From a virus (taxonomy: Duplodnaviria > Heunggongvirae > Uroviricota > Caudoviricetes), in the IMG/VR virus record IMGVR_UViG_2568526312_000010: a DNA stretch of 64,000 nucleotides; one strand, written 5' to 3'. A program made the position numbers. Below are positions 51,001 to 54,000 of this stretch, piece after piece; position 1 is the stretch's first letter; each line of letters starts with the position of its first letter.

Positions 51001-54000
51001 TAGGTGTTCACCGTCGGCGGGTAAGGCAAAACAAACTCTATACGCATCAGTAACCTCTTTTACCCGAGCACGCCGGTTGCAAAGGCGTGATCAAGAAAAC
51101 GAAAAATTAAATCAACCTGGGAACCATGCTTTTCTTCGAACGCCAGCGGATCCGCATGAAGCTCGTTGTGATGCTCCCGACACAGCGGTAGCGTGAAAAT
51201 ATCGTGGGATTTTGTTCCCATTCCGCCCTGACCATGACCAATCAGATGATGAGGATCGTCCGCTGGCTTACCACAACACGCACACGGCTGTGTCTTTACC
51301 CAGCGTGTGTATTTCTCATTTACCCAGCGGCGACGTTTAGGTCGTTTCATGAAGGATTCCGGAGACTCCGGATCAACGGCAATGCTGACCACCGTCTTTT
51401 CCTGTGGTGGGTTCTGTTGCTGGTGGGTGTGAGGCGGTAGCGCAATATTTTTTGTGCGCTGCTTCAGTATGCTGGTGGCGGTCTGTTCTCCCGGTATGAT
51501 GTCACTCTCACGGTATACGGAGCGGATTTTTTCCGCACGCAACCCCAGCGAACGACGTAATACCGCTTCCGGTAGCGCGTCCGCCACCTGATTGCGGACC
51601 GCCCACCAGGATAATTCAGCCAGAGATAATTCACGCTCCTGTGCGCCATTCATTGCGTGACGGATGATGTCAATCATCCAGGCGGCCAGATTCTGTTGAG
51701 CAAGTTGATCCAGTGAATCAGATGTCTGCTCCCGCAGCTGGTTGTCGCAGTGCCAGCACAACACCATCGCGCCGGTACCGTAACGGTGAATGACGGTTTC
51801 GCTGTGATGATAATCACCGTGTAGCCACTGGCAGGATTTCACGTGACGTAATAACCAGTCAGACAGTGCACCAGCGCCACCCGCAGCACGGATCACCCGC
51901 TCATCGCTGAAAAATGGCAGTAGTGATTTATCTTCCGCCAGCGGCTGGTGAACGGCAGGTACAACCCCGGACGGCAGAGCTCGCATGCTTTTTGGTTCCG
52001 GCTCCACCAGTATTCTGCCGTTATGGAATGCTGACATTGATTCACGGCCTGGCTTAACGATAACCAGACCGAGTTCCGGTACCAGAACAGGTCGAAGTAA
52101 TACCCGCACATTACCTCCAGATCCGTTGCTGGAATGTGCGGGACGGACGCGGTGGCCGTTCGGAGTAAGGGAGCCTGACGGAGATTATCCAGTGACGGTA
52201 GTCGAGGCTAAGGGCTTTTTTAACCTCGCATCCGCGCCTGCGGTAACACTGAATGAGCCATTCGGCCTGTTCTTCAGTGCATGGGGGATGCTGGTACCAG
52301 TCAGATTTGAATGCGTAAAAACACCGTCCGCGCCTGCTGGCAAAGACGGCAGAATCATCAGAATTGTATAATTTGGTATCGTGCGCCATCGGTTGTCTCT
52401 GCTGGCGCAGCAGGTGCCAGTTGTTCAGGCTGGCGTGCGAATTGTAAACCAGAATGCCAGGAAAAAACAAAACCCGCCGAAGCGGGTTAAGTGCGGGTGC
52501 GTTGAGGATGCCTGATTCATCAGAGGTGGCGAGGGATTTCTCCCTCGCCGGGTCTCTTACTCCTCAGGTTCGTAAGCTGTGAAGACAGCGACCTCCGTCT
52601 GGCCGGTTCGGATTCGTACCTCGCAGAGGTCTTTCCTCGTTACCAGTGCCGTCACTATGACGGTAATACAGATGACGATCAGGGCGATTAACATCGCCTT
52701 TTGCTGCTTCATAGCCTGCTTCTCCTTGCCTTTCGGCGCGTAAGAGGCTAACCTACATGTGTCTAGCATGAAATTGGCCTCAGATTAATGTTAGGCGTCT
52801 TGCAGGACGCGTAATGTTAACTGGGGCTTTTCTCTGTCTGCCTTACGGTGGCATGCCCGAGGCAGACAGCCTCAAGCACCCGCAGCAATTCTACTTAACT
52901 CTCGCTTTACCGCAAACCGTTTTTACCCGATATGGGAATTCCCATATCGTAATGAATTCAGTTCCCTAGTCGATCCATCAAAAACACAACCAGGCAGTAA
53001 ACGCCCACAACAGCAATAACAGCCAGCGCACCTTCCATTGCCAGTGAAATATCATCCGACATATTCCCTCCTTTGGTGTGAATCCCGGCGAACGTTTTTA
53101 CCCCCACCGACAAATAACATATACTAAAAAATCAATAGCTATAGCAACGCCTGTAATTGCAAAGGCTTCAGGCCAGATCATTGGCGCACCTCCTGCGGCG
53201 GTTCTGGTAGCGGCATCCAGTCGGTTACATTGCGGCTCTGTGTTTCGAAAAATTCATCACCATTACGGACTACATCAAAAAACTCACCGTCTCGATATTG
53301 CGCATAAAGAACGAATGCGCCATCACATAAAATAATTACGTGCTGACCATCATCCGGCATTCGCTCACTACAGCTTATCCAATCATCCAGAGTTACCGGA
53401 TAGTTGGTTGACGTTTCCGAGATTTCCCGAAAATTATTGGTTGACGAACCCTTTTTTTCCCGAAAGTTTCCAGCCTGAAGCATGGCGGCGCTGTCTGGCG
53501 GGGCAGCATATAGCGGCACGTATATTTCCGGTTCCTTATCAGCACCGGGTTGCTCTTCCAGTGAGAATGTCTTTCCGGTAAATCGATTCATATAAAGCAC
53601 GGGCTCTGCTTCCAGCGAAGCCTGAGCAACAAGGGCCAGTGCTAAATCCAACTCAATTGCCTCGAGAGAATTTTTGAATGCTGTCTGTTTTACTGCAAAT
53701 TTCATCGCCTTTACATTTTCACTAACATGACTGATTAACTGCTCTTTTGTAAAAGTGGTCATCTCATTCTCCTTTGATGCGAATGCCAGCGACAATTGAA
53801 GCCTGATAGCTAATTCACTCACAGTACCGCCTCCTGAAAATTGCCCTGATAGAACGCCAGTACACGCAGCATAACTTCACTCTTCCGGCACTCGCCACAG
53901 ATTATGTTCTGTTGTCTGTCGTAGCGGCGTATTTCTCCGTCTGGTAACTTTCGAATCAATGTCTGGTCGGTTGCTTTCTCCGCTGCCTTACGCCATACGC

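Follow-up and report, generated by a model that had tools for sequence, protein, structure and literature searches.

The stretch of DNA analysed here, referred to as the window, comprises 64,000 nucleotides (nt) of the IMG/VR virus record IMGVR_UViG_2568526312_000010 (Caudoviricetes), read as one strand. It belongs to E. coli O157:H7 and carries two lambdoid prophages (prophage 1 and prophage 2), each of which shows a hok toxin region on the minus strand of its early-right (nin) part; bases 52300-53900, around the region of prophage 2, have 100% matches to many E. coli O157:H7 chromosomes. In this region the stop codon of an early gene with a DUF551 domain is overlapped by an open reading frame (ORF) of 27 codons, which is followed by an ORF of 34 codons, a perfect 22-bp palindrome and a toxin locus of the hok/mok/sok type (Table 1). 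Both small ORFs and hok are co-oriented with early transcription, and hok lies downstream of an early operon in every context examined.

Table 1. Features of the two hok regions, with their positions in the window.
Feature	Position	Strand	Description or basis
hok toxin gene, prophage 2	52557..52712	-	51 codons; PGAP name hokD; Pfam HOK_GEF (PF01848) 2.4e-23
mok-type frame, prophage 2	52557..52769	-	70 codons, in frame with hok; 63/70 identical to MokW
Full-length hok mRNA, prophage 2	52471..52881	-	411 nt; 5' GGGUGCUUGAGG (tac) pairs with 3' CCUCAACGCACCC (fbi)
Inferred hok promoter, prophage 2	52888..52915	-	-35 TTGCGG (52910-52915), 16-nt spacer, -10 TAGAAT (52888-52893); sequence reading
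Sok antisense RNA unit, prophage 2	52726..52831	+	RNA from ~52761 to ~52831; positional homology to annotated sokW and sokC
Direct repeat, left copy	52918..52928		CGTTTTTACCC, 11 bp; bounds the 175-bp indel
Palindrome	52928..52949		CGATATGGGAATTCCCATATCG, perfect, 22 bp; between the 34-codon ORF stop and the hok promoter
34-codon single-pass membrane microprotein gene (predicted)	52958..53062	-	MSDDISLAMEGALAVIAVVGVYCLVVFLMDRLGN; WP_001278450.1 = XECs145
Direct repeat, right copy	53093..53103		CGTTTTTACCC, 11 bp; overlaps the 27-codon ORF stop codon; bounds the 175-bp indel
27-codon single-pass membrane microprotein gene (predicted)	53098..53181	-	MIWPEAFAITGVAIAIDFLVYVICRWG
DUF551-domain early gene, prophage 2	53178..53762	-	RefSeq WP_000206793.1; Pfam DUF551 2e-20
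hokW locus, prophage 1	4782..5106	-	leader from +1 at 5106; no 34-codon ORF, no palindrome
hok, prophage 1	4782-4937	-	
mok, prophage 1	4782-4994	-	70 codons, in frame with hok
Sok, prophage 1	~4986-5056	+	
27-codon homologue, prophage 1	5148..5231	-	MTWPEAFTTVGIAMAVALVVYSICRWG
DUF551 gene, prophage 1	5228-5785		stop overlapped by the 27-codon ORF start

The first-pass annotation had placed a Hok toxin in both prophages, and profile searches agree with it: the prophage 2 protein matches HOK_GEF (cut-off of the model, 22 bits) and its gene also matches PHROG 251, 'MokW-like', at 7.8e-33. Mok/Hok of prophage 1 is identical in 70 of 70 residues to MokW/HokW of the 933W prophage, and the prophage 2 protein differs from them by seven substitutions. 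The inferred hok promoter ends its -10 element 6 nt before the +1 at 52881, and the promoter position is kept in all related loci. The hok mRNA ends at an intrinsic terminator located by terminator scan at 52471-52488, and its minimum-free-energy fold (-174 kcal/mol, z -8.0) pairs nt 1-12 to CCUCAACGCACCC near the 3' end.

A covariance search for a Sok-like RNA, also suggested in the first-pass annotation, was successful. Rfam RF01794 ('sok antitoxin', gathering score 59) matches 52707-52881 (-) and 4932-5106 (-) over the full model (1-157) with 116.9 and 113.5 bits, respectively; further matches lie in L003 (502-654) and L004 (1626-1800) of our locus collection. In the window, K-12 and 933W alike, the match is on the strand of the hok mRNA, and the annotated sokC (K-12) and sokW (933W) lie inside it on the opposite strand; thus, the match marks the hok leader, Sok is its complement, and the strand of an RF01794 match should not be taken for the Sok strand. 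The putative Sok promoter of prophage 2 consists of a -35 element TTGCCT (52726-52731), a 17-nt spacer and a -10 element TAACCT (52749-52754), and scores below the threshold of the promoter scan. The Sok terminator hairpin (52776-52828, plus strand) has a folding energy of -35.4 kcal/mol (z -5.8) and is followed by UUUUCUCU.

The hokW-sokW locus was shown experimentally to be a type I toxin-antitoxin (TA) system (Takada et al. 2021, PMC8621323). In that work SokW was detected by northern blot from a locus identical to the prophage 1 type, SokW was lost and HokW was made only upon RecA-dependent prophage induction, and phage release was doubled by the hokW-sokW locus (PMC8621323). The toxin locus is not new, as hokW/sokW was annotated in 1999 and tested in 2021. 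Judged from their sequences, both hok loci of the window are canonical type I TA systems of the hokW/mokW/sokW type, the prophage 2 copy being a putative toxin.

In the window the start of mok lies 57 nt from that of hok and both are read in the same frame, whereas in R100-type plasmids, whose sequence has 100% identical matches in over 2,600 plasmids, the distance is 58 nt and mok is out of frame. The first-pass annotation had described this difference correctly, but the in-frame arrangement is no novelty: it is known for mokC and mokW, since mokC/hokC of K-12 and mokW/hokW of 933W are annotated with common stops at 16751 and 58460, respectively. Furthermore, the IncFII plasmid NZ_CP128973.1 (L310, 340-560) encodes a Hok 100% identical to R1/R100-type Hok, yet its mok is in frame; its mok-to-hok spacing is 1 nt shorter and the classical out-of-frame mok is closed. 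The frame is therefore a detail that varies within a conserved mechanism, and offers no ground to expect a different regulation at the hok loci of the window. The suggestion that the in-frame mok points to a regulation other than that of classical hok/sok was not sustained, because the same layout occurs in K-12 and 933W and the loci lack neither the leader nor the tac-fbi closure nor the Sok hairpin.

Comparison of the window loci with known systems shows shared and differing features. With hok/mok/sok of R1/R100 they share the stable closed mRNA, the unstable Sok and the mok start as Sok target, and differ in the frame of mok. K-12 hokC (gef)/mokC/sokC resembles them in its in-frame mok, in 51-52 of 70 identical Mok residues and in the same Rfam leader match, but it is chromosomal and not in a prophage, is flanked by IS186 and shows no 27-codon or 34-codon ORF upstream. 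The hokW locus of 933W/Sakai prophage Sp5 (AF125520) shows the same leader, in-frame 70-codon mok, 51-codon hok and antisense sok, as well as an unannotated 27-codon ORF between L0139 and sokW; however, it is located at the attR end behind the coiled-coil gene L0139, while both window copies follow DUF551 genes in the nin region, and the 34-codon ORF and palindrome found in prophage 2 are not found at the 933W hokW. As a separate observation, in the IMG/VR prophage contigs L033, L176, L235 and L301 hok is split by an insertion sequence (IS) just after the hok Shine-Dalgarno (SD) sequence AAGGCAAGGAG, about 230 nt past the start of the hok mRNA. The element encodes an integrase-core transposase on the opposite strand, and the situation resembles that of the chromosomal hok loci inactivated by IS in K-12.

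The ATG start of the 27-codon ORF and the TGA that ends the DUF551 gene overlap as ATGA, and a GGAGG (53189-53193) lies 7 nt upstream; the 3' codons of the DUF551 gene, CAG GAG GTG CGC CAA TGA, provide its SD sequence and the overlapping stop. Small ORFs overlapping the DUF551 stop had been noticed in both prophages, with 27 amino acids (aa) in prophage 2 and 38 aa (5115-5231) in prophage 1. The overlap is present in both, but an in-frame TAA at 5148-5150 limits the prophage 1 peptide to 27 aa. The two peptides, now of equal length, share the N-terminus M-x-WPEAF that had been pointed out, and have the C-terminus ICRWG in common as well. Between these ends lie about 17 hydrophobic residues, with a best 17-residue hydropathy window of 2.1-2.3, and the peptide is plausibly a single-pass membrane protein.

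Searches with tblastn found the 27-codon ORF in 92 phage records, with 50-63% identity and always with a start 4 nt ahead of the preceding gene's stop. A collection assembled through the DUF551 protein and a degenerate DNA pattern contains 200 copies with 62 distinct nucleotide versions: exactly 27 codons are present in 198 of these 200 loci, and the ATGA overlap in all of them. When loci were ascertained by DUF551 only, the 27-codon ORF was intact in 71 of 74. The gene upstream of the ORF varies, as it may be DUF551 or one of at least three other C-termini without a Pfam match, including the coiled-coil L0139 of 933W. Between prophages 1 and 2 the ORF differs in 28 of 81 nt, with proportions of synonymous and nonsynonymous differences (pS and pN) of 0.70 and 0.24; the ratio of nonsynonymous to synonymous substitution rates (dN/dS) is 0.14 (Fisher p 7e-4), against 1.5 in a shifted control frame.

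With one genome taken per species, the 27-codon ORF was found in Escherichia and Shigella only. Across 5,426 complete E. coli genomes, the prophage 2 type is present in 682 and the prophage 1 type in 1,633, with up to seven copies per genome; variants with WPEAL or with the WP deleted exist, so a strict WPEAF pattern undercounts the family. The ORF is annotated in none of the four phage records and in none of the RefSeq records inspected, and it is called by a few GenBank submitters. No Pfam, PHROG, NCBIfam or PADLOC model matches the peptide above noise, and a text search for peptide strings, which included the supplements of 'The Cryptic Bacterial Microproteome', gave no match. An apparent fusion of the peptide to DUF551, suggested by its clustering with 121-aa DUF551 proteins, was discarded as an artefact, since those proteins end in ...PEPPQEVNQ without the peptide. 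On this comparative evidence, the 27-codon ORF is a real, conserved coding gene that has been overlooked.

The 34-codon ORF shows a strong ribosome-binding site, as had been noted: its SD sequence AGGAGG (53067-53072) lies 4 nt before the ATG. The first-pass annotation considered both small ORFs unannotated; this stands for the 27-codon ORF in the RefSeq records inspected, but not for the 34-codon ORF, which is labelled 'hypothetical protein' in RefSeq and corresponds to XECs145 (Sakai 1550761-1550922; Hücker et al. 2017, PMC5597208), whose product includes all 34 aa at its C-terminus. In lysogeny broth (LB), XECs145 showed 79 reads per kilobase per million mapped reads (RPKM) in the transcriptome and 346 RPKM in the translatome, a ribosome coverage value (RCV) of 4.35 and a coverage of 0.99, and in brain heart infusion (BHI) a translatome RPKM of 150 and an RCV of 1.14; an inner-membrane location was predicted and the ORF was classed as 'real' (PMC5597208). 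The 34-codon ORF is thus a known hypothetical gene for which translation has been published.

XECs145 was published as 53 codons without SD sequence (PMC5597208), which correspond to 52958-53119 (-) of the window, with the start inside the 3' end of the 27-codon ORF in another frame. The conserved ATG behind AGGAGG lies 20 codons into XECs145, and the 34-aa peptide is therefore the more likely product. As the footprint coverage of 0.99 spans the last 22 nt of the 27-codon ORF and the spacer, it also gives weak, indirect support for ribosomes on the 27-codon ORF. Neither the 29-codon clade described below nor the link to hok is described for XECs145 in that study.

An independent pattern scan recovered 187 copies of this ORF, which fall into two clades: one is the 34-aa form, and the other shares about 47% identity with it. 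In the second clade the start is GTG (ATG on Shigella plasmids), 5 nt after AGGAGG, which gives a peptide of 29 aa, MLVLKCALAIAAVMAIYCLAVVLMDRLSD. Both clades share the SD-to-start geometry despite their differing start codons, and the core A-L-A-x-x-A-V-x-x-x-Y-C-L-x-x-x-L-M-D/E-R/H-L and the position of the stop are kept in nearly all 187 copies. The 34-aa clade is present in 673 of the 5,426 complete E. coli genomes, and an exhaustive HMMER search with the 34-aa peptide found seven close relatives only. Its search against Pfam, PHROGs, NCBIfam and PADLOC gave nothing above noise. The best 17-residue Kyte-Doolittle windows of the 27-aa and 34-aa peptides range between 2.1 and 2.95. In prophage 2 no convincing promoter belonging to the 34-codon ORF was identified, and a TTGAAT/TTGAAG-17-CATATT element is conserved upstream of the 29-aa clade only.

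The 29-aa clade extends to plasmids, as tblastn found it on 124 Shigella virulence plasmid records. The Shigella flexneri plasmid NZ_CP026794.1 (L308, 2001-2090) has an intact, unannotated 29-codon homologue, MLVLKGTLAIAAVMTIYCLIVVLMERFSD, with an ATG behind AGGAGG; a decayed hok-leader remnant comes after it, and icsP (2381) lies about 300 bp downstream.

These data bear on the possibility that the small ORFs arose by chance, or act only in cis, for example as translation-termination spacers upstream of hok, and have been conserved by recent descent alone. Many of the loci are indeed near-identical copies in O157-like strains, and short hydrophobic peptides are what random AT-rich ORFs often give. 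However, in the 27-codon ORF the protein and its exact length are kept at a synonymous divergence near saturation while the control frame is unbiased, the ATGA overlap is kept behind at least four types of upstream gene, the start geometry of the 29/34-codon ORF is kept across ATG, GTG and the ATG of the Shigella virulence plasmid (pINV), and ribosome footprints lie on the 34-codon ORF. We consider this explanation improbable, and plain chance ORFs, an option left in the first-pass annotation, are excluded by the conservation of length, overlap and motif over the 62 versions, the dN/dS and the ribosome profiling of the 34-codon ORF; conservation of both as ORFs in related prophages was confirmed by the counts given above.

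Alignment of prophage 2 with prophage 1 places the 34-codon ORF and the palindrome in a 175-bp segment which is absent in prophage 1. The palindrome, confirmed as perfect over 22 bp, is unique in the window, and none of 100 shuffled sequences gave a match at three or fewer mismatches. As RNA it would fold into a stem of 9 bp capped by a 4-nt loop, and the sequence that comes next is GGUAAAAACGG on the minus and UAAUGAAUUC on the plus strand; without a U-run on either strand it is not a canonical terminator, and an intrinsic terminator was rejected on this ground and because the terminator scan did not report it. Its variants show a single mismatch or a 1-nt bulge without compensatory change and keep the core TATGGGAATTCCCATA, so that a structured RNA supported by covariation was likewise rejected. 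Four loci retain the palindrome together with hok but have the ORF replaced, and the breakpoint falls within the last two codons of the ORF. Centred some 57 bp 5' of the hok start, the palindrome is best regarded as a hairpin or palindromic element that marks a recombination junction.

Peptides of 25-35 residues with one hydrophobic helix and polar or charged ends are known from the TisB, Ldr, Ibs, KdpF and AcrZ class. The peptides of the window resemble this class in being small and in having a single hydrophobic helix. The likeness to TisB, Ldr and Ibs in size, hydrophobicity and single transmembrane (TM) segment, together with the adjoining known type I toxin, would fit the earlier suggestion of further type I toxins, which would each be restrained by an antisense RNA. 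We regard this as very improbable, since the peptides have no sequence relationship to the class and no antisense RNA was found for them: Rfam gave no match here besides the hok leader, promoter-like sites on the antisense strand are at chance level (2 vs 0.9±1.2 expected), and no conserved antisense terminator is present. Moreover, no toxin model of PADLOC, Pfam or NCBIfam was matched. Translation of the 27-codon ORF appears coupled to an ordinary gene and not sequestered, and that of the 34-codon ORF strongly initiated from a consensus, exposed SD sequence; in healthy, growing lysogens the 34-codon ORF ranks with the more strongly translated of the novel ORFs.

The explanation that we favour, and hold to be probable, is that the region of prophage 2 represents a mosaic junction within the early (nin) operon, in which a canonical hok locus adjoins two autonomous, conserved, 'moron'-like accessory microprotein genes that are neither parts of hok nor type I toxins. 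Independence of the peptides from Hok and their insertion in the membrane are inferred. Several observations weigh against this explanation. The published enterohaemorrhagic E. coli (EHEC) ribosome-profiling ORF list has a 93-bp minimum, which leaves out the 27-codon ORF, and the reads assigned to XECs145 may be shared among identical prophage copies. Between the two clades of the 29/34-codon ORF, dN/dS is 0.39 (p 0.08, a single comparison), which indicates marginal coding selection, though in agreement with the other evidence. Hok lies at most 700 nt downstream in 161 of 170 complete 29/34-aa loci (~95%), an association tighter than expected for unrelated accessory genes; of the nine exceptions, four have hok cut by an IS at its SD sequence and five have other DNA downstream. 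Finally, three unrelated membrane ORFs (27, 29/34 and 59 aa) occupy the slot 5' of the hok promoter, which could hint at a functional link.

The third of these ORFs, of 59 aa, was seen in L313 and 17 other loci. It encodes two hydrophobic segments, MKNALQFLFVAFWLFVSCMPIIFTARYMEKVDVLILIFGYINALFLGVFMAVMCIEYWR, behind a strong SD sequence, at most 330 nt upstream of the hok mRNA start in other prophages, is unrelated to the 27-aa and 29/34-aa ORFs and has no Pfam or PHROG match.

The tight linkage and the shared slot are the basis for a different reading, in which the 27-aa peptide, the 29/34-aa peptide or both are functional accessories of hok that tune Hok insertion, timing or immunity, as a multi-peptide membrane module. 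In both clades of the 29/34-codon ORF the hok promoter follows directly, with a few to about 40 nt between the ORF stop and the hok -35 element; about 74% of the 27-codon ORFs have hok downstream, and the small ORFs, including the two-TM 59-aa one found elsewhere, are all co-oriented with hok. Nevertheless, hokW-sokW works as a type I TA system (PMC8621323) although its home locus in 933W has no 34-codon ORF, which is also absent from the prophage 1 and K-12 hokC loci. In addition, 74 hok loci were first found through the hok leader alone and scored for the 27-aa ORF, the 29/34-aa ORF or its remnant, the palindrome and the 59-aa ORF: 23 have none of these modules, 18 have the 59-aa ORF, 13 a 27-aa variant, 10 only the last codons of the 29-aa ORF, four the palindrome without ORF and three an intact 29/34-aa ORF, and three run into the contig end. 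The modules are likewise missing from hokC of K-12 and from plasmid hok. The peptide genes also occur without the toxin: pINV retains the 29-codon ORF after decay of hok, and about 50 of 193 copies of the 27-codon ORF have no hok within 600 nt. Inherited linkage can account for the adjacency, as shared descent of one module can explain why the 29/34-codon ORF and hok lie together. We find a role of the peptides as hok accessories unlikely. Quite unlikely, too, is a further form of this idea, in which the slot 5' of hokW-type promoters is reserved for membrane peptides that act with Hok in timing or immunity, in the manner of holin and antiholin, and early read-through would remove Sok and fire Hok at induction. 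The association of the peptides with hok is read instead as linkage within a highly mosaic prophage junction and not as membership in the toxin system, a functional link being the minority possibility.

The surroundings of the two hok loci are those of early regions. According to the RefSeq annotation, the gene order of prophage 2 is replication genes, DUF1627, DUF977, DUF551, hok, a rem-like gene, DUF968, RusA and Q, and that of prophage 1 is O/P-like genes, DUF1627, DUF4014, DUF551, hok, a YgiW-like gene, DUF968, RusA and transfer RNA (tRNA) genes; the annotated genome AP018488, whose collinearity with the window ends beyond the prophage, was not used for prophage 1. Rfam matches elsewhere in the window include two DicF small RNA genes, one per prophage, at 12316-12367 (+) and 59727-59778 (+). 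The remaining ones, STnc100, the frameshift pseudoknot of the IS3 family (ALIL) and the prophage tRNA clusters downstream of Q-like genes, have the coordinates 48597-48769 (-), 27209-27325 (+), 389-638 (-) and 49545-49791 (-).

In a junction of a canonical hok locus with two autonomous genes, expression would be expected to proceed as follows. As established for the family, the stable hok mRNA is held closed by tac-fbi pairing, and the short-lived antisense Sok pairs with the mok start region and blocks the start of mok/hok translation; once Sok is lost, Mok and Hok are synthesised and the inner membrane is damaged, which in Sp5 takes place at induction and makes phage release faster (PMC8621323). 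The 27-aa peptide would arise by reinitiation at the ATGA overlap, by ribosomes that have just finished translating the upstream early gene, and given this coupling to the preceding gene it would be made together with the early genes. The 34-aa peptide would be produced from its own strong ribosome-binding site, in uninduced cultures too.

The map of the 933W prophage, read from AF125520 (1-4000 and 57000-61670; L311 and L312), shows L0142 through L0139, the 27-codon ORF and hokW at the attR end; int and xis, which lie at the attL end, are encoded on the same strand. With this arrangement, read-through from pL would reach hokW only after excision and circularisation. Derepressed early read-through at induction would then express the peptides and run head-on into the Sok promoter, and would also give 5'-extended hok transcripts unable to form the tac-fbi lock. 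Such read-through and collision could explain the induction-dependent loss of SokW, which was left open by Takada et al. (2021).

For E. coli and its prophages, these results mean that a gene for a predicted 27-codon membrane peptide, often in several copies, is present in about one third of the complete genomes (~2,000) and belongs to no Pfam, PHROG or NCBIfam family. Furthermore, the start of XECs145 is corrected here to that of the more likely 34-aa product, and the gene is extended to a 29/34-aa family which lies almost always beside hok and has a copy upstream of icsP on the Shigella virulence plasmid. The arrangement of these genes also provides a new, testable hypothesis for the trigger by which SokW may be lost on prophage induction only.

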